Shown one piece after another: positions 1 to 57,954 of a stretch of DNA of 64,000 nucleotides. The position numbers were made by a program, and so were the translations under genes. The DNA lies in assembly GCA_963783095.1 (NCBI GenBank), contig CAWAMR010000018.1, positions 9,920-73,919 on the forward strand. The letters run 5' to 3'. The DNA is from an uncultured Planctomycetota bacterium (GTDB taxonomy: Bacteria; Planctomycetota; Planctomycetia; Gemmatales; Gemmataceae). Position 1 is the first letter of the stretch. Each line of letters opens with the position of its first letter. The notes below the pieces were generated by a model that did no database searches, was not told the origin of the DNA, and saw only the letters and a list, made by a program, of their open reading frames with translations.

Positions 1-250
1 CAATTCGGAGTTGATTGACGGCAAAATCCGTCACGAGGACGGCACGGTTGCCAGGCTCCTGCGAAAGTTCGACGATAATAGGAAGCTGGTCGATGAATTG
101 TTCCTGATGTTTTATTCCCGGCTGCCGACCGATCATGAAAAGTTAATTGTGGCCGAGCACTTCCGCAAATATCCGAATAGCCGAAGAACTGCTGCGGAAG
201 ACTTGGTCTGGACGATGGTGAATAGTAAAGAATTTTTGTTTAATAGATGA
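1..250 (+). CDS. DUF1553 (PSD1-like) family protein, C-terminal fragment; gene continues upstream of window
   Basis: ORF frame open from window edge. The C-terminal motif ...LVDELFLMFYSRLPTDHEK... is typical of planctomycete DUF1553 proteins, which precede DUF1501 genes. Confidence 0.6.
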   Translation, partial: NSELIDGKIRHEDGTVARLLRKFDDNRKLVDELFLMFYSRLPTDHEKLIVAEHFRKYPNSRRTAAEDLVWTMVNSKEFLFNR

Positions 251-260
251 AAATAATATT

Positions 261-387
261 CTAACCACAGAGTCACAGAGGACACAGAGATGACAAAATA
301 CACCGCACACGTACATTGATGTTCATCCCTGTGTAATCTAGGCTTCATGTTTTGTCTTCTCTGTGACCTCTGTGACTCTGTGGTTAG
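261..387. repeat. Inverted repeat with ~29 bp arms built from tandem CACAGAG-like units and a ~67 nt spacer, lying between the DUF1553 stop and the DUF1501 start
   Basis: ctaaccacagagtcacagaggacacagaga ... tctctgtgacctctgtgactctgtggttag; the arms are reverse complements with 1-2 mismatches. Confidence 0.6.
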
Positions 388-414
388 GTTGATTTGAAAC
401 TGTTGGAGCAAATC

Positions 415-1743
415 ATGCCGAAAATATCCCCTGCTTTCTGCGATGGCTTGACCCGTCGAGACGCTCTTCGACTCGGCACTGCGGGTTTGTTCGGCATGGG
501 CCTGTCGCTTCCGCAACTGCTCGCGGCCGAGTCGCAGAAGCCCCACGCGCCGGCGAAGGCGATGATCTTTCTATTCCTTCATGGCGGCCTGAGCACCATG
601 GACACCTTCGATCTGAAGCCGGATGCGCCTGTCGAGTTTCGCGGCGAGTTCAAGCCGATCGCTACCAATGTCAAGGGAGTCCAGGTTTGCGAACACTTGC
701 CCAAGGTCGCACAGGTCATGGATAAAGTGTCGCTCATTCGTTCCTTCCGCCATCATAACTCGGATCACGGCGCTGCCGATCACTATATGCTGACCGGTTA
801 CTTTCCGGGGCCAGGGTTCAATCCCAATCTCAACCCCAACAATCAACGGCCCGCGCACGGCTCCATCATCGCGCGAAAGCTTGGCCCGCGCGGCTCCGTT
901 CCGCCGTACGTTTGCTTGCCGAAGATTCATCCCAGTTTCGGATCGGCCTATTTGGGTGCATCGGCCGCCCCCTTCGGCGTCGATGGCGATCCCAATGCAC
1001 CGACTTTTAGCGTCCCCGACGTGCTGCCGCCGATCAACATCGCCGCGAATCGCCTATCGGATCGCCGTCGGTTATTGACCGAGATGGATCATCTGCAACA
1101 AAGCGGTGAAGTCGCCGCCAATAAGCATGCCGAGACGGTGGATGTGTTTCAGAAGAAAGCATTCGAGTTGATGACCTTGCCCGCAGCGAAGAAAGCGTTC
1201 GACATTCAGTCCGAATCGGCGAAGTTGCGGGATGCTTACGGCCGGCATTCCCTGGGCCAGTCCTGCCTGATGGCCCGCCGGCTGGTGGAAGCCGGGGTAC
1301 GCTGCGTCTCGGTCGACCATAGCAACTGGGACACCCACGACAACAACTTTGCCATCTTGAAGAATAGCCTGGTTCCTTCGCTCGATAGTGCGATGTCAAC
1401 GCTGTTCCGCGACCTGGCCGATCGGGGAATGCTCGATTCCACACTGGTCGTCATCACCGGCGAGTTTGGCAGAACGCCGCGGATCAACAAGAACGCGGGC
1501 CGGGATCACTGGGGACCATCCTTCACGGTAATCCTGGGTGGCGGCGGGATCAAGGGTGGTCGAGTCATCGGCAAATCCGATGCGCGTGCGGAACGACCGG
1601 CCAGCGATCCTTTTGGTCCGGAAGATCTCTCGGCGACGATGTATCAACTACTGGGTATCGATCCGAAAGAGGAATTTCATACTCCCGACGGCCGGCCTGT
1701 TGCGATCGTCAACAACGGCAAGGTGATCCACGATTTGCTGTGA
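415..1743 (+). CDS. DUF1501 domain protein (sulfatase-like fold) with Tat-type signal
   Basis: N-terminus MPKISPAFCDGLTRRDALRLGTAGLFGMGLSL (twin-arginine motif). Motifs FDLKPDAP, HGSD, DHWG and a C-terminal GRP...I are typical of DUF1501. ATG at 415 is preferred over the TTG at 394. Confidence 0.85.
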   Translation: MPKISPAFCDGLTRRDALRLGTAGLFGMGLSLPQLLAAESQKPHAPAKAMIFLFLHGGLSTMDTFDLKPDAPVEFRGEFKPIATNVKGVQVCEHLPKVAQVMDKVSLIRSFRHHNSDHGAADHYMLTGYFPGPGFNPNLNPNNQRPAHGSIIARKLGPRGSVPPYVCLPKIHPSFGSAYLGASAAPFGVDGDPNAPTFSVPDVLPPINIAANRLSDRRRLLTEMDHLQQSGEVAANKHAETVDVFQKKAFELMTLPAAKKAFDIQSESAKLRDAYGRHSLGQSCLMARRLVEAGVRCVSVDHSNWDTHDNNFAILKNSLVPSLDSAMSTLFRDLADRGMLDSTLVVITGEFGRTPRINKNAGRDHWGPSFTVILGGGGIKGGRVIGKSDARAERPASDPFGPEDLSATMYQLLGIDPKEEFHTPDGRPVAIVNNGKVIHDLL

Positions 1744-1775
1744 CCAAAACTGGGCGAGCAGGGAACGGGAGCGGT

Positions 1776-2120
1776 ATGATCGTCGGCGCACATGTTGTCA
1801 TCTACAGCACGAATCCCGATGTGGACCGCGCTTTTCTGCGCGACGTGCTCAAACTGACACACGTCGACGTGGGTGGGGGTTGGCTGATATTCGGTTTGCC
1901 GCCGTCAGAAGTCGCCGTCCATCCCTCGGAAAAGAGTGATGTGCATGAGCTATATTTGATGTGCGACGACGTGCAATCGTTCATTGTCGAGATGCAGCGA
2001 CACGGTATTGCGTGCGGCCCAGTTCAAAGCATGGGCTGGGGCTTGTTGACACAGTTGACGCTGCCGGGCGGTGGGAAACTTGGGGTTTATCAGCCAAGGC
2101 ACGATCGGCCAAAGGCATGA
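1776..2120 (+). CDS. VOC/glyoxalase-bleomycin-resistance family small protein
   Basis: MIVGAHVVIYSTNPDVDRAFLRDVLKL...GGGWLIF...VHELYLMCDDV pattern, ~115 aa. Start could instead be the GTG at 1740, which overlaps the upstream stop. Confidence 0.5.
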   Translation: MIVGAHVVIYSTNPDVDRAFLRDVLKLTHVDVGGGWLIFGLPPSEVAVHPSEKSDVHELYLMCDDVQSFIVEMQRHGIACGPVQSMGWGLLTQLTLPGGGKLGVYQPRHDRPKA

Positions 2121-2169
2121 CCTCGGCGTGGGCTCTTGCCCTGCCTTGCGTCGTTTTGGGATTATTCAG

Positions 2170-4550
2170 ATGCAGCGCAGCATTAGCCGAGCCACGCGAA
2201 TCAGGTTTCTCTCAATTCTGCTGACTTGCCTTGCAGCAACTCCGCTGCGAGCGGAGCAGCCGGTCGGCGTTTACCTTTTTCCCGCCGGCGCTCAGCGCGG
2301 CACCTCTCCCGAGATCCTCATCGGCGGCTTGTTTCTCAACAAAACCTGCAACCTGGAAATCCTGGGTGCCGGCATCGAAGCACCCAAACAAATCCATCGC
2401 GCTATCTCACCCTGGTTCGAGGGGCCGGTCCTGCCCTTGCCGGAGTCGCAGCGACAAGAAGATTATCCGCGTGCGATGTCGGCGAAGTTCCAGATTCAAC
2501 CGGATGCCAAGCTGGGTAGTCGGGAAGTGCGGATGTGGACTTCGCAAGGCGTCACCGCCCCCCTGAAGTTCATCGTTGGCGACTTGCCGGAGATTGTCGA
2601 AAAGGAAATCGCCGGAGAGCCGATCCCCGTTCCGGTTAAGGCTCCGGTAACGATCAATGGCCGGATTTTTCCGCACGAAGACATCGATATTTACACGGTC
2701 TCCCTGAAGAAGGATGAGACGATTACCTGTTCCGTCGACGCCGCCAAGCTAGGCTCACCGTTGCAAGCTCATCTTGAAATTCGCGATGAGCAGCAGCGCC
2801 GACTCGCCGAGAGCAGCGAGTGCCGGTATGCCGAGCCTCGACTGGCTTTCACAGCGCCGAAACAAGGAATTTACCAAATCGTCATCCGCGACCTTCGCTT
2901 TGACGGTGGATCGGCGTTCGTCTATCGCCTGACCATCCTGACGGGGCCATCGGTTGCGCGAGTCTTCCCGCTGGGTGCCCGGCGCGGCACCCAGACTCGA
3001 TTTGAGATTTCCGGACCCTCGCTTCGGAACAACATCGCGAGCCTGACCATCCCGCAAGATGCTCCCTCGTCCTATCGGACTCGGTTTCACGTTGGCGAAG
3101 AGGACACGAATCCCGTCGTACTGGATGTGGACGATCTCCCGGAGATCGTCGAAACGCAGCCTGCAACGGATCCGATCAAAGCCAATTTCCTTTCCGTGCC
3201 CGCGATTGGCAACGGCCGAATTTCCAAACCCGGCGAGATCGATGACTGGAGTTTTTCCGCTCGAAAGGGCGACGTGCTCGACATCGAACTTCGTGCGGCC
3301 CGGCTCGGTTCTCCTCTTTTGGGAATGTTGACGATTGTCGATCGATCGGGCAAAGTGCTTGCTCGTGACGAACCCGGAATTAGTTCCCATCCATCACTGC
3401 GATTCACTGCCCCACAGGATGGGCTTTACCGCATTCGGGTCCAGGATCAGTTCCGCTCGCGCGGTGGTTCCGACTATTCCTATCGGCTCCGCGTCGATCG
3501 TCCCAAACAAAGTTTTGCACTGCATTTCAGCACGCCGTCGCTGACTGTTCTCCAGGGTGCTCAGACACCTTTGAAATTGACGGTCAATCGAATGGGTGGG
3601 TTCACCGGCCCCATATTCCTGCGTGTTGAGGGAGTTCCTCCGGGAATCACGCTGCCAAAAGAGTTGCTGATCGCCGCGAATCAAAGTAGCGTCGATGTTC
3701 CACTGAAGACGGAAAAAACCATACCGCTCGGTTCGTCGATTATTCGAGTTACCGGCACGGCGTTTTTGCCCAATGCGTTTAGCTCCATCCCGCTTCCGAT
3801 GCAGCGGGAAGCCGTTCTTGACGCGTATAGTGATGATCTGGCGTTCTCGCAGGTTCGTCTGGTTGTTGCGATCGCTACACCCTTCAAAATCGTCGGTGAA
3901 TATGTGTCCAACCAGGTGCCGCGCGGGACGATGTACACGCGCCGATACAAGATCGAGCGCGCAACGGCTTCACAGGGCCCATCGAGATTGCGATGGCGGA
4001 TCGCCAGGCCCGTCACCTGCAAGGTGCGGCAGGGCCAACGATCATCGTTCCGGCAGACAAGAATGAATTCGAATATAACGTGCAATTGCCGCCCTGGATG
4101 GAAACCGGGCGAACGTGCCGCGTTTGTGTGATGGGAACGGGTGTCATCAAGCAAAGCGACGGCACCGAGCATGTGGTGGTGTTCTCTTCTCGCGAGCAAA
4201 ACGATCAAATCATCGCGGTCGTCGAACCCGAAAGACTCGCTCTGATTGTGGATCGCACCAGTTTGCGGGTCGAAGCGGGACAGAAAATCGAGATTCCGGT
4301 TGAGATTCGGCGAGGTGAAGGATTGAAGGGCCCCGGACGGCTCGAATTGATCGTGCCGGAAACCATCTTGGACATTCGCGCAAATGCGGTGACAATTCCA
4401 GCCGATTCGGGTCGAGGCACTTTGACGGTCAGCTTCGGACCCAGCGCCAAAGGGCCATTTCCCGTACCGATTATCGTTCGCGCAACCGTCGATGATCGCG
4501 GCAAGCCTGTGGTGGCGGAAGCGAAACTCGACCTCGTAGGCAGTCGATAA
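2170..4550 (+). CDS. Large secreted protein with at least three PPC (bacterial pre-peptidase C-terminal)-like domains; apparent frameshift near 3965-3990
   Basis: Signal peptide MQRSISRATRIRFLSILLTCLAATPLRA. Repeated G(R/N)I...DIDxYTV/DDWSF...LGSPL...YR(L/I)RV modules. ORF 2071..4131 ends in an R-rich non-protein-like tail, whereas the overlapping ORF 3993..4550 in another frame is protein-like. Confidence 0.6.
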
Positions 4551-10455: not shown

Positions 10456-10464
10456 GGGTGTGTT

Positions 10465-11837
10465 ATGTGGGAGCCTTACAAACCGAGCGCGAGAAATCCC
10501 TGGAACCTTCATAAGGTCGGCCATCTCTATCGCCGCGCAGCCTTCGGTGCCAACTGGAATGAACTTCAAGTCGGCCTTGAACTGGGACCGGACAAGCTCA
10601 TCGACAAGCTGGTCAAGGGTGGCACTGGCCTTGCTGATTTCGAGAAGGAGACGCTTCGCTGGGGGGCCTCGATCCGGAAGGTCAATAATGCACCCCAGTC
10701 ATCCGAGTGGTGGTTGTATCGGATGCTCTATACACCGCATCCGCTCAAAGAAAAGATGACACTATTCTGGCACAATCACTTTGCGACCAGTTTTGCCAAG
10801 GTGCTGAACACCTCATACATGATGGGTCAATATGACTTGATGTACCGGTCTGCCCTGGGCAATTTTGCCGAACTGCTCCAGGCGATCTCCAAAGATCCAG
10901 CGATGATGGTCTGGCTGGATACTGTGCAAAGCAAGAAAGGGATGCCCAACGAGAACTATGCCCGCGAGTTGATGGAACTGTTTAGTCTCGGCATCGGCAA
11001 TTACACCGAGGTGGATATACGCGAAGCTGCCCGTGCTTTCACCGGCTGGGAAATCAAGGAAGGCAAATTCTTCGACAACTCCAATCAGCATGACCGCACG
11101 GAAAAAACCGTACTCGGACGGAAAGGGAATTGGAAGGGCGATGACGTGGTTCGGATTTGCCTGGAACAGAAAGCGTGCCCGCGCTTCATCGTTCGGAAAC
11201 TCTACAAGTTCTTGATCAGCGAGAGTGAATCACCGGCTGCGGAAGTGATTGAACCGCTGGCGCTGCAATTCGCGAAGGACTATAATTTCGGCGCGGTCGT
11301 CGAAACCATGCTACGATCGAATTTGTTCTTTTCGGACTTCGCCTATCGGTCGCGCATCAAAGCGCCGGTCGATTACGTGCTGGGAATCGTGCGCGGACTT
11401 GAAGCCCGCCTCGGCGTGACCACCCTGGCCCGCGCTGGACCAGCTTGGACAGAACCTGTTCAATCCGCCTTCGGTCAAGGGCTGGGATGGTGGCGCGGAC
11501 CTGGCTCAACGGTCAAACTCTTTTGACCCGCCAGAACCTGGCATTGACCCTTTGCGAAACCCGGAACAAGGATGAAGGCGCAAAGGATTCATCGCCCCTG
11601 CCCGTGCTGCTGGCCCGGCATCATGGAAAGAAAGACAGCGAACTGGTCGATTTCTTCTTGGAGCTATTCCTCCAAGGTGCGGTGCCTCCCGAAACGAGAA
11701 AGCACCTCACCGATTATCTTGCTTCAACCTGGAAACAAACCTATCCGGTTTACTGGAGCAAAGAAGACATTGCCGATCATCGCATTCTGAGCATATGCCA
11801 TCTGGTGTTGACGTTACCTGAATTTCAACTGGACTGA
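10465..11837 (+). CDS. DUF1800 family protein; two apparent frameshifts (~11438 and ~11495)
   Basis: FWHNHFATS, VWLD and NENYARELMELF motifs. The three frames in succession read ...LEARLGVTTLARA / LDQLGQNLFNPPSVKGWDGG / TWLNGQTLLTRQNLAL...LVLTLPEFQLD, which reconstitutes a DUF1800 C-terminus. Confidence 0.8.
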
Positions 11838-11876
11838 CAATCTACCCCGTCTCAGCAACTCTTCCGGAGTTTACCC

Positions 11877-13105
11877 ATGCAAAATCGCCGCGATTTTTTG
11901 AAGAATACCAGCCTGGTTGGGATGGGAACGGTCATCCCGACATTCCTGGCGAAGACAGCACTCGCAGCGCCCAGTGCTTCCGCAACAGGGGCCAAGGATA
12001 CCATCCTCCTCGTCGTTCAGTTGACGGGCGGCAACGATGGCCTCAACACCGTCATCCCCTACAAGGATGATCATTACTATTCCTATCGCCCGACGATTCG
12101 CATCCCGAAAGACCGAGTCCGCAAGATAAACGATTCGTTCGGACTGCACCCATCCCTGGAAGGGCTGGCGGGATTGCTCGAAGACAAGGCTTTGTGTGTG
12201 GTGCAGGGGGTAGGTTATCCCAATCCCAGCCAGTCGCACTTCCGCTCCATGGACATCTGGCAAGCGGCCAGTACCGCCGAAACCCTGAACGAGGGCTGGG
12301 TTGGCAAGGCGCTCAAATCTCTCAAATCCCCAGCCTTCCATATCGCCACCGCCAACGAAGCGGCACCTCTCGCATTGACTGGTGCGCCGATTCGCGTTCC
12401 GTCGATCACCTCGATCGAAGACTTTCAGCTAAAGATGACGGCAGCAACGGCGGCAGACAAAAAGGATCAGAAGTCGTTGATTCAGGGAGCGGTCAAGAAC
12501 AGCAGTCAATCCGGGCTTCTCGATTTCGTTGCCAAGACAGCGCTGAATACTTATGCCAGCAGCGAAAAGTTGCAGGAGATCGGCAAGAATTATCAGGCCA
12601 AGTCTCCTTACCCTCAAGGCAACTTGCTCGCCAACCGTCTCAAACTGTGCGCACAACTGATCGATTCGGGGATCGGTGCGCGAATCTTTTACGTTTCGAT
12701 CGATGGGTTCGACACTCATGCCAATCAAGGTGGTCCAACCGGTGCCCATGCGAACTTGCTCACGCAGGTATCCGGCGCGATCACCGCGTTTTACAAAGAC
12801 CTGGCGGCACGCGGCCACAAAGATCGGCTCCTGGTGATGACGTTCTCCGAGTTCGGTCGGCGCGCCAAAGAAAACGGCAGCAAGGGAACCGATCACGGCA
12901 GCGGCGCTCCGATGCTGCTCGTTGGGGGCAAAGTGAAGGCCGGGATCGTCGGCGACATCCCGACTTGACCAAATTAGAGATGGGCAATCTCAAGCATGCC
13001 ATCGATTTCCGTCAGGTATATGCAGCGGTCCTCGATCAGTGGCTTGGGGTCAACAGCAAGGAAGTCCTGGGAGGGGAATACCAACACGTAGGGATTCTTG
13101 CATAG
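11877..13105 (+). CDS. DUF1501 domain protein (Tat signal); apparent 1 nt deletion near 12950
   Basis: MQNRRDFLKNTSLVGMGT... with GGNDGLNTV, DGFDTHANQ and MTFSEFGRR. The C-terminus ...DHPDLTKLEMGNLKHAIDFRQVYAAVLDQWLG is recovered in the overlapping frame (ORF 12194..13105). Confidence 0.85.
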
Positions 13106-13292
13106 TACCCCCAACGGTTGCAACTGAGACTCATTGGACCCAAGTTCATTCCGGAACTTTGGGTCCAGCTTTTTTCCTCGTTCAGCATTTTTGAAGGTAC
13201 GAACGATGAACTTTGGTGGGAATGAATTGATGTAAGATAGGCCGATCCGTAGAATGCGAGAGAACGCCATCGACAAAGAAGGTATCTGAATT

Positions 13293-13378
13293 GGAGAGGT
13301 GGCAGAGCGGTTGAATGCGTCGGTCTCGAAAACCGATATACCGCAAGGATATCGGGGGTTCGAATCCCCCCCTCTCCG
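13293..13378 (+). tRNA. tRNA-Ser (anticodon CGA), class II with long variable arm; no encoded CCA
   Basis: GGAGAGG acceptor stem pairing with CCTCTCC; D-arm GCAGAGCGGTTGAATGC; anticodon loop CTCGAAA; long variable arm; T-arm GGGGGTTCGAATCCCCC. Confidence 0.85.
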
Positions 13379-13500
13379 TTTTCATTTCATGTCATTTGAT
13401 GTAAATTATTGCAAATTAAATACTTACATCTCAAGTTTTCTCACTTATGAACCCTCCTGGTGCACGCTTGGTGCACATACCGTGCACAGGAGTGTGTTTC

Positions 13501-14850
13501 ATGAGGTCTCGTCGAAGAGGCTCACCGAAGCGATTTCGCATTGGACGAGTCTCGGTTTACCCTCACCACGGAGCATGGTGGGTTTATTATCGCGATGCCG
13601 GCCAACCCGTGCGTCAAAAAGTCGCACTGGAGCACAAGGATGCCGAACAGATTGCCGCTCAAATCAATAGCCAATTGGCGTCCGGTGCCCCGCTACTTCT
13701 CTCATTCAGTCCCACGACGGTTGCCCACTTGCGAGAATCTTTTCTCGGGCATCATGAGTTCGTCCTGAAATCTTCTGTGGCGACCATCCAGCGCTATCGA
13801 GCCGCAACGCAACATCTAGAAGCCTTCACATTACGGGACACAAAATCACCGCGGGTCCACGAAGTTTGCGCCGAAAACTTCGTCCGTTATCTGCGTGAGA
13901 TTCAAGTCGCTCCCAATGGTCATCAGAATACCAAGCGGCGAAACCTTCGCGACAAGGGGATTCAGTTCATTCCAGAAACCTGCCGTGCGATGTACGGATT
14001 CGCGGCAAGGCGACGGCATCTTCCACCGTATATGGGAAACCCGTTCGCAACATTGCCTCTCGACCGGCTCAAGATCGAAGACTCCAAGCCAATCTTCCTG
14101 TTTAATGCCGAGAGCGAACTCGCTTTTCTTCGTCGAGCCGATGTCTGGGGATTCCCCATCCATTTCACTCTTGCCAAGACCGGCATGCGAAGCGGAGAAC
14201 TCTGCCATCTGCTGATCGAAGAAGTTGACCTCGAAGGTGGTTGGCTGCACGTTCGTAACAAGACCTCGCTTGGCTGGCGAATCAAGACTGGGAATGAAAG
14301 GGCCATCCCGCTTCTGGGGGAATTGGTTGCTCTTCTACGGGTCGTCATTGCTAATCGGAAGGCGGGTCCGGTCTTTTCGCCAGCGGTCGCCGTCATCTCC
14401 CGGGCGTCACACTCAATCGCGCCGCTTGATTTTTTCAAAAACACTTTTCCTGAAGGTCCCACTGCGCGCGCCTTGGTTCGCCAAGCAAATTTCGCCACGG
14501 ACTTTGATCCATTTTCCCGTGAAAAAAGCCTGAACAGAACGCCACACAAGATTCGCTGGACTAACACACCCACTGCGCGCCTTGGTTCGCCAAGCAAATT
14601 TCGCCACGGACTTTTGCCGATTTTGCCCACGAAAACCAGTGAACATACCGCCACACGACATTCGCTGGACCAACACACCCGGCACACTTATCAACGATCT
14701 TGTACAGGATGCTCTATTTACTCCGCTTTCGCGCCACACTGGGCCGCACCGGATCCAGGACTCGGCTCACCTTGTTTTTCTGAAGGGTCTTTACCAGATG
14801 CGCACCAGCCGCTCTTGAGTTCCAGTTCCCGTTCCCGTTCCTCCGCATAG
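13501..14850 (+). pseudogene. Phage-type tyrosine integrase, C-terminally truncated/degenerate
   Basis: N-terminal arm-type region (VYPHHGAWWVYYRD) and the catalytic-Arg box (TLAKTGMRSGELCHL) are present. The HxxR...Y box II is missing, and the sequence after ~14385 is non-protein-like and repetitive. Confidence 0.65.
14458..14690. repeat. Two tandem degenerate ~115 bp repeats inside the integrase 3' remnant
   Basis: cccactgcgcgc(gc)cttggttcgccaagcaaatttcgccacggactt ... cgccacac.attcgctgga..aacacaccc occurs twice consecutively. Confidence 0.6.
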
Positions 14851-15780
14851 AGCGGCATCATCGTGTAGAACTGTACGACGCGTCCATCGTTGAGCGTCGC
14901 CGTCGGAATATCGGACATTTCTAGAAACAAGCCCATGCAACTGAGTTGGGTATTGGCTGCGAACGGCTGCGGCGGCTCGTCATTGGCAATGATCGTGACC
15001 GGCGCTCCCAGCCAGGTCTTGTTCTGGTGCGGATACAGGGCGATTCGACGCATCCATTCAATCGGCCAAAACAATTCGGGGTTGCCCAGCGATGCTTCAT
15101 CCAGCGGCCATTTCTTCCCGGGCGGAAGCTGCAGCACCAGTTCGGCGAACTGAAACTCTTCTTTGCCTTTCGGGACGGTCATGGGCTTGTCGCACATCCC
15201 GGTCGTGAAAAGCGTGTTGTAGGCCCTCTTGCGCGTGGAGGGCACGAAGTGAATGGCAATATCCGGATCCGTTGGCACGATGGATCGTAGTGCCAGCGTC
15301 TGGGCGCGCCGACGCGCCAGAAACATGTTCGAGAATTGCCTCACGCGAACGAACGAGCGGCTTGTCCGACGCCCACCAGGGTTCGGTATAACCGGAAGGC
15401 AGAACAGCACCCTTGGAAGCCAAATACTTGTAAATCTCTGGATGGCCAAGCGCGTTCGATAAAGCATTCATCCCTGCCCATTCGGCATTCACATCGGCAC
15501 CGTGCTCAACTAACAGCTTGACAATATCAACAAAACCGTGACTCGCAGCAGTTGAAAGAGCAAAATTACGGACGGCACCATCTACTGTGCAATTGGAGTC
15601 TGCGCCTTGTTCCAGCAGCCACCGGACGACAACTACATGACCTCCAAGTGAAGCGCTGTAAATCGGAGTTTCTGGACTCTCTGAGGGATTTTGAGGTCGG
15701 GGTGCGTTTACACTCAATCCCATGCTCACCAGCCTTTGAACAGTGGCTAGCATCCCTTTTTCGCCGCCATGTGAAGCCAA
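14718..15780 (-). CDS. Ankyrin-repeat + SUFU (suppressor-of-fused)-domain protein; putative immunity protein; apparent frameshift near 15310-15320
   Basis: ORF 15097..15780 carries ANK repeats (GADSNCTVDGAVRNFALSTAASHGFVDIVKLLVEHGADVN). ORF 14718..15467, in another frame, carries a bacterial SUFU-like core (HFVPSTRKRAYNTLFTTGMCDKPM...YPHQNKTWLG...NDEPPQPFAANTQL...MPLYAEERERELEL). The junction falls in a GC-rich run. Confidence 0.65.
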
Positions 15781-15907
15781 GTTTGATTCCCCACATCACG
15801 ATGTAGCAAATCGGGGTGCATGCTTAGTAGCCGCTGAATTTCGTCCGCGTCATCGCGATTCATTGCCCCACTTATTGTGTTTAGCAAGACATCTGTTTCA
15901 TCTAACG

Positions 15908-16867
15908 TCATGGTGATTTGAACTCTCCTTTTGCGAATCGGTCACCAAGATCCTTGAGCTTATTTATGATGTCTATCTTGTTTTTGGGAGTAGCCTTTAA
16001 TTCCTTGTAAACAGCTAACGCGTATTTCTTGGTATGGCTCCAATTCGGTGCCCACATAAGATTCTCAGGCCCATTTATTGGATCGATTTTGACATCCTTC
16101 AGGATTTGCTGGCTTTCTTGTACCGGGGTCGCCGACCCATCCGTTACACGATCGTATGTCGCCGACGGGCCTTTCCGCATGACGATATGGTGAGCGTGAA
16201 TCGTGACGTCATGATTGGTTTTTTTGGCATTGTTCAGGTAGCCTTGAATCGCAAGATCCGGAGTCGGCACGGATTGGCCTTGAAAGTATTGATGGCCCAG
16301 TGCGTCGCCGCCGTTATCTTTTTCGTATTTTTGCAGGAGCGCTTTGAATTTCGCCTCATCGGGGTCCTTGGGCTTCAGCAGGCCCTCAAGGAGTTCAACG
16401 AGATTGATTCCTTCTTTGGCAAGCTTCGGGTTTGCCGCCTCGAATTTCTGGTCGATGACGTAGCCTCGAACATCCTTGAGGCGTTCGTGCGGCTTTTGCA
16501 TCCCTTCAATGAGCTTGGCAAGTTGAAGGTGAATCGTGCTTTCCAGTTCCTTGAGCAGTTTCGCGCGGTTTTCCTGCTTCTGCTTTTTCTGCTCCGGCGT
16601 CCGTCCGCCCGGCTGGCTCCCCGCGACCTTGGCGAGCTTGTCGTAGGCATCCTTGATTGTTTTCTTGGCCGCGTCGAGTGATTTTCCTGTCAGTCGCGCG
16701 TTGACGCTCGCGACATAGATTTCAATTTCATCCTTGTCGTTGACCTCCACCCATAGTTCGTGTGTCCCTTCATATTCAAACGTCCGTGTTTTGCCCAGCC
16801 GGTTCGGGCGGTCGTTAAACAGTTTCCCAAGGCGGCCAAGGGTCGCCCCTACGATCTTGTTGATCAA
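15908..16867 (-). CDS. Toxin-like protein with C-terminal AHH-family (HNH/EndoVII-fold) nuclease domain; TTG start
   Basis: C-terminal ...TIHAHHIVMRKGP...ENLMWAPNWSHTKKYALAVYKEL matches the AHH motif pattern (AHH..P ... N..W.P..H...Y..V). Helical N-terminal region. Sits directly upstream of the ANK-SUFU gene on the same strand. Confidence 0.65.
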   Translation of the reverse strand: MINKIVGATLGRLGKLFNDRPNRLGKTRTFEYEGTHELWVEVNDKDEIEIYVASVNARLTGKSLDAAKKTIKDAYDKLAKVAGSQPGGRTPEQKKQKQENRAKLLKELESTIHLQLAKLIEGMQKPHERLKDVRGYVIDQKFEAANPKLAKEGINLVELLEGLLKPKDPDEAKFKALLQKYEKDNGGDALGHQYFQGQSVPTPDLAIQGYLNNAKKTNHDVTIHAHHIVMRKGPSATYDRVTDGSATPVQESQQILKDVKIDPINGPENLMWAPNWSHTKKYALAVYKELKATPKNKIDIINKLKDLGDRFAKGEFKSP

Positions 16868-16939
16868 GTCTTCGACAGGCTTTTTGACTTTGCTAAGAAG
16901 GTAGTTGTAACTCGATCATCCACTCAAGAACTCATCGCT

Positions 16940-16975
16940 GGTGCACAAGTGGTGCACAAGTGGTGCACAAGAAAG
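16940..16975. repeat. Three tandem copies of GTGGTGCACAA near the island's right end; putative recombinase-binding iterons
   Basis: gctggtgcacaagtggtgcacaagtggtgcacaag. The related ctggtgcacgcttggtgcacataccgtgcacagg occurs at 13448-13490 next to the integrase start. Confidence 0.55.
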
Positions 16976-17110
16976 TCAAGCTGGGGGCAAGGTTCTGATA
17001 GTGGAGGTTCGTGGAAGAATGATGAAAAAGGTGTTTTTTCCGAGGTTTTGTGCATCAGATGGGGTTCGCGAGTGAGAAAACAAGGCATGACGGAATAATT
17101 TCTCGGAGAG

Positions 17111-17125
17111 TCCCCCCTCTCCGTT
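17111..17125. repeat. Putative attR: direct repeat of the tRNA-Ser 3' end
   Basis: tcccccctctccgtt vs tRNA 3' atccccccctctccgtt (13362-13380). Confidence 0.5.
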
Positions 17126-17246
17126 GGTTTGTTGGCCTCTGTTTATTGTTGTTTTTCCGCGATGCAATAAAGAAAGCGTTCGCCGCGGAGGAACAGGTCC
17201 TGGCCGGCGAGCGCCGCCGAGGCGCTGAAGGAGTCGTCGAGGCGGT

Positions 17247-18502
17247 TTACGGCACAGCATTTTGACGTGTCGGCTCGCCGTGGCTGATGACCTGGGTGAC
17301 GCCGTCGAGGCTGGTGACGTAGATTCGGCCGGCGGCGCCGACCGGCGACGCATAGACGTTCCTGATGGCGTCCAAGCGCACGGGATCGCCCAGGTCTTTC
17401 CCCGTCTTGGCATCGATGCGCACGAGGACGCCCTGGTAGTGCTGCAGGTTATAAATCGTGCCGTCGTAAAGCAGCGGCGATGGAACGTAGGGCGTTCCCC
17501 GGTGGCGAGACCAGACGACCTGGTTGGTCCCCGTGATGTCGCCTTTGGCGCCGTCGAGTTGGATTGCCAGCATGGCGCGCGTGTCGTAGCTGCTGCCGGC
17601 GTAGACGAACCCGTTCGCCGCCACCGGCGACGCCACGATGTTGGACGACAGCCCACCGCACTCCCAGACGATCGCGCCGTTGGCCAAGTCGTAGGCGCGC
17701 ATGCGTTTCGTGCCCGGGACGATGACCTGGGCCTTGCCGTTGTGCTCGACCACAATCGGCGTCGCCCACGAAGTGTCCTCGGCGCGAGCCACGCGCCAGC
17801 GTTCCTTGCCGGTGCGTTTGTCGAGGGCGACGACAAACGATTTCTCTTCGTGGTCCCAGTTGATGATGAGCGTGTCGCCGTGAAGGGCCGGGGAACTGCC
17901 TTCGCCGTGGCCGTGCTTGGAGTGCATCTCGCCGAGGTCTTTTTTCCAGAGCAGCTTACCGGCTACTGTCCAGGCAGTACAGGCCGTACGAGCCGAAAAA
18001 CGCGAAGACATGCTCGCCGTCGGTGACGGGCGATGCCGAGGCGAGGCTGCCGGTGACATGACCGGCTTCGTGCGGCGTCGCCTTGTTGCAGCGTTTGCTG
18101 CCAGAGAATCTTGCCGGTGCCCGGCTGACGGCCAGCACTGCGAATTCGTGGTTGCGGGTCAGTGTCAAGTTGTCGTGAGCACCTGGACGAACGAAGCGGG
18201 GCTTCACCGGATCGCCGTAAGGGATCGCCGTGGTCAGGTAGAGGCGGTCGCCCCAAACGATCGGCGTGGAATGCCCCTTGCCGGGCAGCGCCGTCTTCCA
18301 GCGGATGTTCTTGTTCTTCGTTCCATTCGATCGGCGGCTGGGCATTCGGTGCCACGCCGGTTGCTAGCGGTCCGCGCCATTGCGCCCAGGAGTCCGGCGC
18401 TTCGACCTTGCCGCGCTCGGCATTTACCGCTCCGGCCAGCAAGCAGGTTGTCGCCAGATTGCCAATAATTGACATCATGACGATGCCCCCTTGGTTTGCC
18501 AC
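17247..18502 (-). CDS. Secreted PQQ-like beta-propeller repeat protein (BamB-like fold); at least two apparent frameshifts
   Basis: Signal peptide plus WAQWRGP start (ORF 17963..18502); propeller blades in ORFs 17956..18345 and 17247..18059 (PIVWGDRLYL, FVYAGSSYD, GRIYVTSLDG). Confidence 0.7.
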
Positions 18503-18714
18503 CTCGAGAAGTCCAAGTTGCCCCCTGACCGATTCTATACCCCGTCGCGCAAGTCTGGCAAGCGACAGTTACAATGCACGCTTTCGTATCTGAGGAACGG
18601 CACCTGCCGCCGCAAATCGTCGGCATTGCGCGGAGAAAATGTCCATTTTCTGACAGCTTAATAGAACAAAGCCACACAATATGCGCGTTTTCCAACACAC
18701 CTTGAGGATCATCC

Positions 18715-27024: not shown

Positions 27025-28872
27025 CTACTGCATGAAAAAGCTCGTACTTTCTTCTTTCACGATAGGCTGCTTCAATTGATCGCACGACATCTGGACCTTG
27101 AACCGCATATCCCCAGGGATTGTGCCCTTGGCTTTGACTTTGATGACCGCATCGGCCTTCATCGCCAGATTTGGGATCGGGTCGAAGTGCAACGCCTGCC
27201 CGACCGACTTGTAGGGTACCGGCCCTGTTGCAGTACCAGGCACTAATCCTTCCGACGTGATCGCAGTGATGCGAATGTTGGTGCAAGGACAAGTCCCTGT
27301 ATTCACAATTCGGATTTCGTAGGTCGTTTCTTTTCCTACCTCGATCGGATTTTCAAGATTTGCTACTTCGAAGCTCAGGGCCGGGACTCCTTCCGCTGCG
27401 ATAATCGCTTCGGATCGGGCACCGAGCTTCGGGCCGGCCTGAGCCACCGCTCGAACCGCGAGTGAACCAGCACCCGTCGAACGTGTCTTAATGGTGAGAT
27501 TGCGGCGCAGTCCCCGCATCCGCTGGCCCAAAGTTCCAACTCACCGTCCGAGTTGCGGCATCGTAAACGCCCCCGTCACTGGCCGAGACGAAGTCCAACC
27601 CTTCCGGGAAGGCAGTGGCAATCTGGACAGGCTGCGTAGCGCAGGTGCCCGGATTTCCAATCTCCAGTGTAAAGGTCGGCTCTGCCCGCACCATACAGCG
27701 GCGTGGCCCCGTCAACGCCAAGGCAAGTTTGGGCTGATTCAGTTGGATCTCTGCTCTGGCAATCGCCTTTGGCGATCCTTCACATGTTGCGCTCAGGCTG
27801 CAATTATGTGTTCCGGTGGCAATGGCCTGAACCTTGAGGGTGATGGACTGAGTGTCACCCGGTAGAATCCGGGGCAAAGTCGCTTCGATGTCTTTTCCTT
27901 CGGGATGTTTCAGGCCATCACTCAGCGGCGCTTTAATGCTGACCTTGTTTGCATCGCCTGTGCCGGTGTTCATTACCTGAATTTGGATTGGAATCTCATC
28001 TCCAACTTGGCGGCGTTGGGAGCAGTCAAAGTCACGCTCAAGGTCGGTCGAGTGACCTTGACGAGCATATGCGTGTGGGTCGAATAGGAGAGCGATGGGT
28101 TGGTGTTCAAATCGCCTTCCGGATTGGGCCGAACCGTGACCTGGATGCGCTTTTCGTCGTTTGGACCCATTGAGCCGAGCATCCACAGAATTTTTCCGCC
28201 GGCCTGTTCACCGGCCGGCTCGGCACTGATGTATTTTGTGCCCTGAGGCAACTCTTCCTCAACGCGGACATGCGTGACGGCCGCTTGGCCGACGTTCCTC
28301 ACGAGGATTTCGTAAGTAACGGGTAGGCCGTGGCCGACGGTATCCGGTCCTGTAGTTTCAATCGACAGACAAGGCACAATACGATTTCCGGAAGCTGCAT
28401 GGGTTTTCAGCGGCACCGGCCCCGGCAAGGTAGAGCCGGGATGATGGGTGGATTGAAACCGGAGTTCCGATGCCGGTGCTTTCGGAACAGTCCGTGGCTG
28501 GAGTAGTGTAGGTTTTGGCCTATCGGGCAACACGATCGCCGGCTCGCCCGCGGGTGCAATCGGCGATGCGCTGGTTTTGGGTTGGTTCGGGTCGATGACC
28601 GGCAACACGAGACTTGGCGAATCGTTTTTGGGTTGCGGCAAAGGGGCCAATGTTGTTGGCGCAGAAGGTGCCGATGGTATTTCAAGAGGCTCCGGTGTCG
28701 GAATTGCCGGCGTAGAGCTCGAGCCATCCTTCTTGGAGAATGAGTAGGTTGTGGGCTGGACTTGAGGGAGTTTCAAATCAGGTTGCGCGGTAACGATATC
28801 ACCATGGATCAACCCGATGCCGCAAAGACCCGCGATACCCAGCATCAGCGTAAACGCCTGAATTCGTCTCAC
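27025..28872 (-). CDS. Secreted protein with Pro/Thr-rich linker and three DUF11 (conserved repeat) domains; two apparent frameshifts (~27510, ~28180)
   Basis: Signal peptide MRRIQAFTLMLGIAGLCG; repeats ...TYEI.V.N.G.A..T.V.V.D.LP.GL.F... spread across ORFs 27973..28872, 27488..28186 and 27025..27531. Confidence 0.65.
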
Positions 28873-29065
28873 CGCTTGGCCCCCCTGCTCGGTCGATCGT
28901 CGGCGTCGGCGATCGGATCGCCTCCGTCCGACTTTGGATTTTTTCTCTTTCGATTGGTCGTGCGGGCCGAGGCGACGTTTTCCCCCCGGAAATCATCTCA
29001 TCGTGGCTTCCCACGACGGTATGCGTCGCCTCGTCCCGCACCAACCTGCCTGCCTGCTCTCAACC

Positions 29066-29740: not shown

Positions 29741-29803
29741 AAAAGATCTGTCCAACCATAGACCTGGATTTTCCGCGCTTGAAGCTGACAATACCTCCAT
29801 CCC

Positions 29804-31888
29804 ATGCACCGTGAAATCTCACACACCGATGAAGTCTTCGGCGAATCGAGCAATGCCGGGCTGTACTTGCTCACCGCCCTCCTGGCGATTTTGCTTGCTC
29901 TGGATTTGTGGACGCCTCTCGCAAGCTGGCTCACGTCGCTGAATCTCGGCATCGAATGGCCCATCTGGCAGCGTGAGTTCTCGGGTTATCGCTATGCTCT
30001 CATCGCGGCAGTTCTCGGCGGTGCCCGCGTATTGTTCAATTCATTGGAAGCCCTCTTTGACGGCAAGCTTGGTGCCGACCTCGCCATTGCCGTTGCCTGT
30101 ATCGCAGCCATCCTGATCGGTGAGCCTTTGGTCGCTGCGGAGGTGGTCTTCATTGGCTTGATCGGAGAATGTCTCGAAGCGTTCACGTTCGCTCGTTCCC
30201 AGCGCGGCATTCGCAAACTCGTCGAAGTGTTTCCGCGCAAGTGCTGGTTATTGCGCAACGGGCAGGAAATCGCGGTCAACACCGATGAGGTTCGGGTCGG
30301 CGATCGAGTTGTGGTCAAACCGGGCAAGAAAGTCCCCGTCGATGGCGTTGTCGTCGAGGGCCGATCTGCCGTTGACGCTTCACCGCTCACCGGTGAGAGC
30401 TTGCCCATCGATAAGGAGCCGGGTAATGATGTGCTTGCCGGCAGCATCAACCAGTTCGGCTTGATGATCGTTGAGGCGAAGAAGGTTGCGGAGCAAACCG
30501 TCGCGGGCCGGGTGATCGAACTAACCTCGAAGGCGCTCAAGGACAAGGCCCCCATCCAGCGCGGAGGTCGATCGGCTCGCAAGATACTTTCTCCCGGCAG
30601 TGTTGGGGCTGGCATTTCTCAGTTTCTTGATCAATGCGATCTATCTGGCAGGGCCATTTCGACCAGAATCGAGCCGGCTCAACTGGTCCGCTGCCGCCCG
30701 GCTCAGCATGTATCCTACCCTGGGCGTACTCGTCGTTGCCTGCCCATGCGCTCTGGTGCTGGCAACGCCGGCAGCGGTCATTGCTGCGCTCGGCAGGCTT
30801 GCGGGAACCGGTGTGCTCATCAAAGGAGGCAGCGTCCTCGAACGGCTCGCGACGGTGAAGACTTTTGCTTTCGACAAAACCGGAACTTTAACCGAGGGTC
30901 GGCTCGAGCTTGGCGACATCATTCCCGCAGATGGGATTGAAGCGAATGAGGTATTGCGAACCGCTGCACTTGCAGAACAAGGAAGCGAACACCCCATTGG
31001 GCAGTTGCTGATCCACACTGCGCGGGATCGGTCAATCTCCCTGGAGCCCTTGACGGAATTTCAGGCCCATCCGGCGCAGGAATCTCAGCGCTTGTTTCCG
31101 GTCATCATCTTCTCGTCGGTACGCATCAGCTGTTGGAATCCGAAGGTGTCGCGATCCCTGCCGCGATCAGGGACGCCTTGACTCACCTGGATGAATCCGG
31201 GCAAACTTCCCTCGTCGTTGTTCGCGATGGTGTGGTTCTGGGAACGATCGGGATGCGCGACAAGATTCGCCTGGACGCAGCAGACATCGTTGCGGAATTG
31301 CGCAGCGCCGGTGTCACTCGAATGATGTTGTTGACCGGCGATCGCGCTTCGGTTGCCCGCACGGTTGGTGAGCAATTACGGATCGAAGAAGTCCACGGCG
31401 AATTGCTGCCGGCCGACAAGGCAAACTTGATTTCCCAGGGGCAAGCCGCAACCGGCCCCAGCACCGCTTTTGTCGGGGACGGCATCAACGATGCTCCCGC
31501 ACTGGCCGTTGCAACGGTCGGGATCGCCGTGAGCGGTTCGGATATCGCTGCCGAGGCGGGCGATGTGGTCTTGATGGGCGAGCCGCTACGACACCTCCCT
31601 CTATTGCTCCGGCTCTCGCGCGAAACAATGCGCATCATCCGCCAAAACATTGTCTGGTTTGCTTTTGGTGTAAATCTGGTCGGTGTGTTGATCACCGGCA
31701 TTCTCTGGCCGCTGTTCGCCACGTCGCCCGACTGGTACGACAAGTCTCCGCTGTTCGGTGTCATCTATCATCAGGCCGGCTCGTTGCTGGTTTTACTCAA
31801 CTCCATCCGACTACTGGCCTTTGAGCGCCGATCGACGCATGCAGGCTGGCGGCGCTGGACGGACCGATTCGCCGCAATTGACCTGTGG
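29804..31888 (+). CDS. P1B-type heavy-metal-translocating ATPase with no N-terminal metal-binding domain; two apparent frameshifts (~30590, ~31090)
   Basis: TM-first N-terminus; TGESLPIDKEPGN actuator region, CPC in VVACPCALVLATP, DKTGTLT phosphorylation site, GDGINDAPAL. Spread across ORFs 29804..30940, 30600..31181 and 31133... Confidence 0.8.
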
Positions 31889-33119
31889 ATGCAACGAAAC
31901 CTGACGGTCGATAGCGCCTTGCACGAATTGACTCACCGCTGGCGTTGGGCGCTGGGCGGACTGGGAACGCTGGCCCTGATTGCCTGGCTGTCGACGAGCC
32001 TGGTGCAGGTTTCACCCGATCAGGTAGGAGTGTTAAAGCGATTTGGACGAATCGAGGAAATCTTACGGCCGGGGCTTCACATTCGCTGGCCCTGGCCGGT
32101 CGAGATTGTGATGAAACTGGCTCCCGATGAAGTGAAAACAGTAGGGCTTGGGTATCGCTCACCCGAAGAAGAAGAAACGGATGAGGATTTGCCGCGCAAG
32201 CGAGTTATGAAACCGAAAGCAGGTCAGGCACCGCAAGGGGCAACCTGGACCAGCCTGCATGGTGGAACCGAGAGCTTTGCCGAAGAAGCAGTGATGATAA
32301 CCGGCGATGGCAACCTCGTCGAGATTCTTGCGACCGTCGAATACCGAATCGACGACCCGAAACAGTATCTTCTCGCCGCACGGCAACGAAAACCGATACT
32401 GCGTTCGGCAATGGAATCGGTGCTGCGGGAGATGGTCGCGGGCCGGACTTTCGCCGATTTGTTGACGGTCTATCGAGCCGAATTCGAAGCCTCAGCACAG
32501 GCTCATCTCAAGCAACGAATTCGAGAACTGGCACCCGAAGGCTTAGGCATCCATCTCAATGGCTTCATCGTTCACGATCTCCATCCGCCCAGAGCTGTGG
32601 TGGCCGACTATTACGAAGTGGCCCGCGCCATTCAGGCCCGCGATCGGATGATTAACGAGGCGCAAGCCGAGGCGATCCGCAAACGTCGCCGAGCTGAGGA
32701 GGATGCCATTCGACTGGTGAATTCGGCCGGCACCGCGGCGAATGAGCACGTTGGCAGACAGGCGCTGAAACGGCGAAATTCTCGCGCTGCAACAGGCCCG
32801 TCAACAACTCGAACTGGTCGATGAGGCCAACCTGGCAGCGGAATTAAACCTTGCGCTGATAATGGGACAAGACCAAGCCACTGCGGTGAGCGACTATCTG
32901 CTTCGGCGTAAGAGATTGTTGTTGCTCAGGCGATCGATGATCGATTCGCGTCTCGCCTGGGAAGCATTGACGGAAGTTCTCCGCAAGAGAGACAAGATCA
33001 TTCTCGACATCGAAAAGCTACCGGGCCGGCGGCACTTATTTCTGGTCGATCCCGAATGGTTAAAGCCAACGATGCTGGTTCCCCCCGGCCCGCTGCTTCC
33101 CAATAGGGAAAGTAATTAG
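31889..33119 (+). CDS. SPFH/band-7 HflK-like protein, in frame with (no stop after) the ATPase; apparent frameshift near 32765
   Basis: TM helix ALGGLGTLALIAWLSTSLV followed by VSPDQVGVLKRFGRIEEILRPGLHIRWPWPVE...NGFIVHDLHPP...EAQAEAIRKRRRAEEDAI. The C-terminus RLAWEALTEVLRKRDKIILD continues in ORF 32862..33119. ATG at 31889 is a possible independent start. Confidence 0.6.
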
Positions 33120-57900: not shown

Positions 57901-57954
57901 CAGAAACTGCTGACCGAAATGAGCAAGATTCCGCGACAACTGAAGAAAGAATAG
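54929..57954 (+). CDS. Ser/Thr protein kinase with TM segment and C-terminal TPR repeats, ECF-coupled; at least five apparent frameshifts
   Basis: [18 protein letters not shown] (Gly loop), [11 protein letters not shown] (catalytic loop), DFGLAK, and GTPAYMAPE, spread over ORFs 54929, 55186, 55409, 55876 and 55991. TPR in ORFs 56577..57218 and 57106..57954. Confidence 0.7.

Follow-up and report, generated by a model that had tools for sequence, protein, structure and literature searches.

An AHH nuclease toxin gene and its ankyrin-SUFU immunity partner in a planctomycete tRNA-Ser islet, with frame breaks that are very probably assembly errors

We examined a 64,000-nucleotide stretch of DNA (the window) from an uncultured Planctomycetota bacterium of the Gemmataceae (NCBI GenBank assembly GCA_963783095.1, contig CAWAMR010000018.1, positions 9,920 to 73,919), and in it a nuclease toxin gene and the neighbouring gene for an ankyrin-repeat/SUFU protein. 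The locus is an ordinary pair of a Tox-AHH toxin and an ankyrin-fused Imm-SuFu immunity protein. The immunity gene is interrupted by three frame breaks, which we infer, with high confidence, to be consensus errors of the assembly and not mutations. The 319-residue toxin is predicted to end in a Tox-AHH nuclease domain of the HNH/EndoVII fold, with its stop codon overlapping the start of a gene for an ankyrin plus Imm-SuFu protein of ~399 residues. Judging from its family, the latter protein would bind and neutralize the nuclease in the producing cell. As for the breaks, modification of GCGC sites may disturb long-read (nanopore-type) base calling, and if the assembly was not polished with accurate reads, indels of one or two bases would be left at or beside GCGC. 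Coordinates of the features are collected in Table 1.

Reconstruction of the immunity gene

A first-pass annotation of this DNA had placed ankyrin repeats and a SUFU core in different frames that overlap over ~370 nucleotides. This was confirmed. The ankyrin open reading frame (ORF; 15097..15780, minus strand, 227 residues; Pfam Ank_2 match, E = 5.4e-21) and the SUFU ORF (14718..15467, minus strand, 249 residues; Pfam PF05076 match, E = 1.4e-28, 100.4 bits, profile positions 3-145 of 172) lie in different frames and share 371 nucleotides (15097-15467), and both E-values are far beyond chance. In a three-frame translation, the immunity gene was found to begin in a third ORF (15747..15911, 54 residues), which holds its true ATG and its first half-repeat (MTLDET...NQTWLHMAA). 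At the other end, the last ~30 residues of the protein (...AHLVKTLQKNKVSRVLDPVRPSVARKRSK), including its DxxR motif, are encoded in a third frame past ~14804. Of the single frameshift proposed earlier, in a gene taken to span 14718-15780, the break at the junction therefore stands; there are two further breaks, the gene spans 14714-15911, and one bridge does not restore it.

Three small corrections gave a protein of ~399 residues in which Pfam recognized SUFU over profile positions 3-172 of 172 (110.9 bits against a cut-off of 25) as well as ankyrin repeats above their thresholds (Ank_2 71-75 bits, Ank 51-57, Ank_4 51-58). NCBIfam returned only ankyrin-effector matches for this protein, far below threshold. 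When aligned with 12 intact homologs, the repaired protein matched from end to end and was gap-free at every junction. The invariant residues G202, G369, L373 and R390 of this alignment appear in the immunity protein only once the gene is corrected. Indels aside, the gene is free of decay: it keeps its invariant residues and contains neither in-frame stops nor deletions.

The repaired protein was searched against 5.8 billion proteins, which yielded 528 matches, and the domain layout was described for the best 102. About 90 of these 102 are single ORFs of 370-410 residues that contain both ankyrin repeats and PF05076, with 93-100% query coverage and 32-50% identity. Single-ORF homologs of this kind had been named in the first-pass annotation as the check on its view that the two pieces form one protein; they are clearly numerous, and the view is upheld. 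Most of the single-ORF ankyrin-SUFU homologs, about 100 in all, are from Planctomycetota, as are the named ones, for example from Pirellulales and Gemmatales. We know of no experimentally tested member of the ankyrin-fused planctomycete Imm-SuFu group. The closest intact homolog is ~50% identical and has no called toxin upstream. The best match of all (P0001, 82% identical, 258 residues) is the immunity gene on L001, a 34-kb metagenome contig from ENA that provided a second assembly of the locus. Scans of genome contigs and metagenome contigs with the repaired protein revealed no close relative and no third copy.

The conserved motifs of Imm-SuFu are GxS, E, E and DxxR (PMC3482391). In the repaired protein DxxR is present as DPVR and the glutamate of AEL is kept, while the GxS position reads GMC, with Cys for Ser, in both assemblies. 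Both assemblies also contain, relative to the homologs, a two-residue ER insertion ahead of the last SUFU helix. The insertion site lies in a hexanucleotide-repeat stretch (window 14830-14850, minus strand, GAACGGGAACGGGAACTGGAACTC), where LYAEERERELEL stands against LYTEERDLE in the homologs.

GCGC sites and the nature of the frame breaks

The first-pass annotation had called for inspection of the junction at the level of reads, and the comparison with L001 served as an approximation of this. L001 aligns with window positions 18520-4710 at 98.1% identity over 13.8 kb. The two differ there by 62 indel events and 206 mismatches; twelve indel sites fall inside the 1.2-kb immunity gene, and these include the junction that had been noticed first. 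The differences cluster at one motif: 21 of the 62 indels (34%) and 50 of the 206 mismatches (24%) are within 3 nucleotides of GCGC, compared with 5.4% in the background (P = 5e-12 and 2e-19, respectively), and GCGC ranks first among the 256 tetramers for differences between the assemblies. Homopolymers were not enriched at indel sites. The mismatch spectrum near GCGC, compared with that away from it, was not clearly diagnostic.

All three breaks in the immunity gene are indels of one or two bases at or beside GCGC (Table 1). Intact, the sequence at break 1 is GCG GCG CAA AAA GGG and encodes AAQKG. L001 has the C that is absent from the window, homologs P0002 and P0003 read AAQKG and AAQRG, and tblastn with homologs shifts frame at 15750-15762. 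Break 2 is the junction that the first-pass annotation had mapped to a GC-rich run at ~15310-15320. In agreement with this, tblastn with three intact homologs shifts frame at 15301-15308, in a run that reads GCGTCGGCGCGCC on the minus strand (15302-15314). Here the assemblies disagree, the window having GCGTC-GGCGCGCCCAG and L001 GCGTTGGGCGCCCCCAG; the intact sequence is probably HVSGALGAPQTLALRSIVP, and in the homolog alignment of the reconstruction the invariant G202 is recovered at this point. At break 3, L001 is without the extra T and in frame as ELKSGWAHLVKTLQ, and the end of the SUFU profile is reached only after this correction. Across the gene, the high-scoring segment pairs obtained with homologs in tblastn follow the frames -3/-2/-3. 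A first version of the repair (A6 at break 1, a C deleted at break 2 and GG at break 3) was replaced, as L001 and the homologs gave better solutions.

The immunity gene is not alone in being broken. At least six other genes of the window are broken likewise (P-type ATPase, DUF1800, DUF1501, DUF11, PQQ and TPR), with splits judged by the continuity of Pfam domains on selected ORF pairs. The P-type ATPase is spread over three frames, which cover positions 3-134 of the E1-E2 profile, 130-179 of the same profile with 1-61 of Hydrolase, and 76-190 of Hydrolase. The DUF11 gene is in three pieces and the TPR gene in two. In DUF1800, profile positions 1-328 and 340-419 are in different frames, and one DUF1501 ends at position 335 of 390. 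The neighbouring PQQ propeller is divided into three or four pieces or more, and its end (...LYCIAEKQQ*) is in yet another frame. Other genes of the window are intact, including a DUF1501 at 388-1740 (1-390 of 390), GFO_IDH and a second PQQ gene, and the damage is accordingly patchy. A self-trained codon-usage frame plot, applied to frame switches over the window, gave nothing usable, its signal being too weak at 55% GC, and the 337 overlapping ORF pairs on the same strand were uninformative by themselves. In a single 563-residue ORF (31133-32824), the C-terminal portion of the Hydrolase domain of the ATPase (residues 20-127) is followed by a complete SPFH/Band_7 domain (292-514); the ORF is either two genes fused by a further indel or a lost stop, or an unusual arrangement.

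Of the breaks in the window, those that could be placed to within a few bases, seven in number, are all at or beside GCGC (15762, 15301-15314, 14804, 12955, 11493, 30559 and 31074). At the DUF1501 break (~12955) the window reads GGCG-ACAT, and GGCGCACAT of L001 restores VGAHPDLTKL. The DUF1800 break (~11493) is just past KGWDGG. The two ATPase breaks were placed without L001, at 30559 (PIQR|EVDRLARYF, at CAGCGCGG) and at 31074 (EFQAHP|GAGISALV, at CCGGCGCAGG).

Indels tied to one 4-bp palindrome are not a mutational pattern, and for this reason a motif-linked error is favoured. The findings suggest modification of GCGC by the organism (HhaI-type specificity), which would perturb base calling. 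In nanopore assemblies, ~70% of consensus errors have been found in a methylation motif (Wick et al. 2019, PMC6591954), and such errors lead to an excess of false pseudogenes (Huang et al. 2021, PMC8011154). The toxin gene, which is A/K-rich, has 3 GCGC sites (3.1 per kb), compared with 10 (8.3 per kb) in the immunity gene and 18 (13.7 per kb) in the PQQ gene. That the toxin gene is open while the immunity gene is broken can be attributed to these 3 sites versus 10, and no biological explanation is needed. The earlier idea of a real frameshift that inactivates the immunity gene and spares the toxin is hence not sustained, as similar breaks are present in unrelated genes, all placed breaks are at GCGC, the second assembly differs and the toxin gene is poor in GCGC. 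If the breaks are consensus errors, the true sequence should contain an uninterrupted ORF of ~399 codons that reads ...WLHMAAQKGML..., ...HVSGALGAPQTLAL... and ...ELKSGWAHLVK... at the three positions.

Several points weigh against consensus error as the explanation. The status of each indel as an error was inferred from assemblies and not observed in reads. L001 is very noisy, chiefly over window 15-18.5 kb, which corresponds to its contig end, and is a second opinion rather than a reference; it may also go back to the reads from which the window was assembled. Neither assembly by itself is in frame at break 2, where the intact reading requires the extra G of L001 plus one more C that is carried by neither. 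Most GCGC sites are unaffected, and several long genes of the window with 7-12 such sites are unbroken. Finally, the islet in which the pair resides (see below) is visibly decayed, with a truncated integrase, and real decay of its cargo is conceivable. On the L001 contig itself, positions 1-3500 (window 15000-18520) differ from the window by up to 72 mismatches and 11 indels per kb, as against 0-7 elsewhere, consistent with a poor consensus at the contig end or with strain mixing.

We therefore weighed the possibility of a real pseudogene, in which an immobilized islet is decaying and at least one indel is a true mutation that has killed the immunity gene while the toxin ORF stays open. The integrase reduced to profile positions 31-88 of 172 and the behaviour of break 2 would fit this, as would the DUF1800 break, which has an equal net effect on the frame in both assemblies, so that some breaks are shared. 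Systematic errors, on the other hand, are expected to recur at one motif across independent assemblies, and because of this shared breaks are not evidence of reality. The artefact pattern seen over the whole window is matched in the 1.2 kb of this gene, where three inactivating indels would have had to arise independently, all of them at GCGC. Breaks 1 and 3 are absent from L001 or differently placed there and break 2 differs, although L001 is itself rich in errors. Moreover, the absence of any decay other than the indels argues against a dead gene, and an active AHH nuclease with intact motifs should be selected against when it is not neutralized. We regard a real pseudogene as improbable. 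Likewise improbable, by a slightly wider margin, is a reading in which a true mutation underlies at least one of the three breaks; break 2 (15301-15314), which neither assembly alone resolves in frame, would then be the best candidate. If this were true, the population would harbour an open AHH nuclease gene with intact motifs next to a dead ankyrin-SUFU partner in an immobilized tRNA-Ser islet, and the toxin would be silent, neutralized in trans by another immunity protein, or repurposed.

Two further explanations are effectively excluded by the homolog alignments. The first, two separate overlapping genes whose ankyrin and SUFU immunity products would each stand alone, has precedents in the stand-alone SUFU proteins among the matches (for example P0071, P0100, P0101 and P0112) and in the stand-alone Ank genes beside an ankyrin-SUFU gene in a Gemmatales genome (L006). 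It is nevertheless very improbable. The homolog alignments run on through the junction, and the linker and the start of SUFU (ILEHV...G.P.PLA...IVP) are divided between the two frames. In the 249-residue ORF the first ~65 residues are an out-of-frame translation without a family match, the Pfam match beginning at residue 68, and the 227-residue ORF has neither an ATG nor the first half-repeat, which is located in the third ORF. The second, programmed ribosomal frameshifting or phase variation that controls the output of full-length immunity protein, could draw on the A5 run beside break 1 and on the repetitive GC-rich sequence at the breaks. It is hardly credible given that the ribosome would have to shift three times and not always in one direction (-1, then +1 or -2, then +1), that all close homologs are single ORFs in need of no shift, that housekeeping genes have similar breaks, and that GCGC rather than homopolymers is enriched at indels. 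Consensus error at GCGC thus remains our preferred explanation for the three breaks.

The AHH toxin gene and the tRNA-Ser islet

The first-pass annotation had described the ankyrin-SUFU gene as lying directly downstream of an AHH toxin gene, as its immunity partner, and this was borne out. The stop codon of the toxin gene overlaps the ATG of the immunity gene as ATGA, and the adjacency of a toxin domain to an ankyrin-SUFU gene is found again in GCA_040772845.1 (L005). There, a PT-HINT polymorphic toxin of 813 residues ends 11 nucleotides before the ankyrin-SUFU gene (homolog P0019). Its last ~90 residues match the AHH region of the window toxin with E = 4e-8, with HAHHI and NLxWAPNWxH in common. 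In the Gemmatales genome mentioned above (L006, homolog P0057), the ankyrin-SUFU gene is among stand-alone Ank genes and a deaminase-toxin/Imm10 pair, in a cluster of immunity genes. Ankyrin-repeat fusion, occurrence in planctomycetes and association with Tox-AHH among other nuclease toxins have been reported for Imm-SuFu (Zhang, de Souza, Anantharaman, Iyer & Aravind 2012, PMC3482391); both the ankyrin-SUFU architecture and its Tox-AHH context are already described in that study.

The toxin matches the Pfam family AHH (PF14412) marginally, with 23.0 bits against a cut-off of 22.3, and NCBIfam found nothing in it. An [AG]HH motif with downstream N and H residues is the motif definition of Tox-AHH (PMC3482391). 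The toxin contains HAHHIV and NLMWAPNWSH, which align with HAHHIL and NLEWAPNWGH of the L005 toxin. In a HMMER scan, the 92 matches to the toxin were all confined to residues ~220-317, and in most of them the matching region is at the extreme C-terminus of a protein of up to 1857 residues. The N-terminal ~200 residues are Lys/Glu-rich and had no homologs in either large protein search. In residues 1-210 neither Pfam nor NCBIfam identified a family, and no secretion, repeat or processing domain was recognized; the N-terminal module of a polymorphic toxin (RHS, PT-HINT, LXG, PAAR, filamentous haemagglutinin or similar) was not found in this protein. The start codon is TTG, with no ATG upstream, and the ~330 nucleotides upstream of the gene are non-coding in all frames. 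The pair may be a stand-alone or orphan toxin cassette. On the coding strand, ~70-100 nucleotides upstream of the toxin start, an 11-mer (TGGTGCACAAG, 16939-16971) is repeated in tandem in three perfect copies and could be an operator or regulatory repeat.

The toxin-immunity cassette is the cargo of an islet of ~3.7 kb inserted at tRNA-Ser(CGA). The order of elements is the tRNA gene, an integrase remnant, a 109-bp sequence in two tandem copies, and finally the immunity and toxin genes, which converge on the integrase remnant. Tandem repeat apart, a tRNA-integrated islet is made up in this way: an integrase stands next to a tRNA gene whose 3' end recurs as a direct repeat at the opposite boundary. 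The 14-nucleotide repeat (CCCCCCTCTCCGTT) is an exact copy of the last 14 nucleotides of the tRNA and occurs twice in the 64 kb, versus 0.04 occurrences expected. Its downstream copy sits in a hairpin (17104-17123). The truncated integrase is probably non-functional, and the islet has probably lost its mobility. The 109-bp tandem repeat (14466-14680) is made up of two copies, 85% identical, and separates the integrase remnant from the 3' end of the immunity gene. It is also present in L001 and in one frame encodes PH(K/D)IRWTNT. We considered whether it is a duplicated HxLRHT box of the integrase whose removal would restore the enzyme; with one copy removed, the Pfam match was not extended, and the idea was dropped. 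Rfam recognized the tRNA as its sole match, and a scan for promoters and terminators gave results at chance level.

Table 1. Features of the toxin-immunity islet and broken genes in the window
Feature	Position	Strand	Basis or remark
tRNA-Ser(CGA), integration site of the islet	13292..13379	+	ARAGORN; Rfam tRNA, 61.8 bits
att-like direct repeat, copy 1 (tRNA 3' end)	13367..13380	+	CCCCCCTCTCCGTT; repeat search
Tyrosine-recombinase (integrase) remnant	13447..14400	+	Pfam Phage_integrase, profile 31-88/172 only; first half of the catalytic domain only
Complete ankyrin + SUFU (Imm-SuFu) immunity gene	14714..15911	-	Read through three frame breaks; reconstruction of 399 residues
SUFU domain PF05076	14741..15266	-	Residues ~216-390 of the repaired protein; Pfam, homolog alignment and motif list of PMC3482391
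Frame break 3	14800..14806	-	Extra T at 14804 beside GCGC: GGCTGG[T]GCGCATC
Frame break 2 (junction of the first-pass annotation)	15301..15314	-	Patch of three overlapping GCGC sites and a C run
Ankyrin-repeat region	15484..15863	-	Residues ~17-143 of the repaired protein; Pfam Ank_2, Ank, Ank_4, Ank_3
Frame break 1	15758..15770 (~15762)	-	Window GGCGGCG-AAAAAGGG; one C of a GCGC absent
Toxin gene, 319 residues	15908..16867	-	C-terminal AHH (HNH/EndoVII) nuclease domain at ~15917-16237
att-like direct repeat, copy 2	17112..17125	+	Between toxin start and PQQ gene; far bound of the ~3.7-kb islet
Regions with frame-split genes (DUF1800, DUF1501, PQQ propeller, DUF11, P-type ATPase, TPR)	10456-13102, 17190-18568, 27028-28992, 29789-32100, 56529-57951		

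Significance and comparison with known systems

The locus adds one more Tox-AHH/ankyrin-Imm-SuFu pair to the family described in 2012. The compact tRNA-Ser islet of 3.7 kb and the N-terminal region of the toxin, without known relatives, are of minor interest. More generally, the locus is a caution: the appearance of a dead immunity gene beside a live toxin here arises, in all likelihood, from assembly errors concentrated at GCGC. Findings of frameshifts, pseudogenes or overlapping ORFs on this contig should be discounted unless they are away from GCGC or confirmed by accurate reads.

The breaks resemble the false pseudogenes of nanopore assemblies (PMC6591954, PMC8011154) in that small indels and substitutions occur at one short palindromic motif, conserved genes are split and assemblies differ from each other. 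They are unlike them in the motif, GCGC here and not CCWGG of Dcm, and in that the sequencing platform and the modification are presumed in our case. The islet is comparable to integrative islets inserted in tRNA genes with toxin-immunity cargo, sharing with them the tRNA-Ser, the integrase, the cargo and the 14-nucleotide repeat of the tRNA 3' end; it differs in its very small size (3.7 kb) and its truncated integrase.

The toxin agrees with Tox-AHH (PF14412, HNH/EndoVII fold) in its [AG]HH motif and downstream N/H residues at the C-terminal end of the protein, and in a domain that is common to the C-termini of long polymorphic toxins, including the PT-HINT protein with an ankyrin-SUFU gene next to it. 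In contrast, its Pfam score is marginal, the protein is short (319 residues), and its N-terminal 200 residues have no recognizable domain or relatives. The immunity gene in turn corresponds to Imm-SuFu (PF05076, PMC3482391) in its full-length SUFU domain and its position directly after a nuclease-toxin gene, with which it overlaps, as well as in the ankyrin fusion, the planctomycete host, the pairing with Tox-AHH, and a two-domain layout and length that are common to ~100 proteins. It departs from the family in having GMC for GxS and the ER insertion, and in a nearest intact relative that is only ~50% identical.

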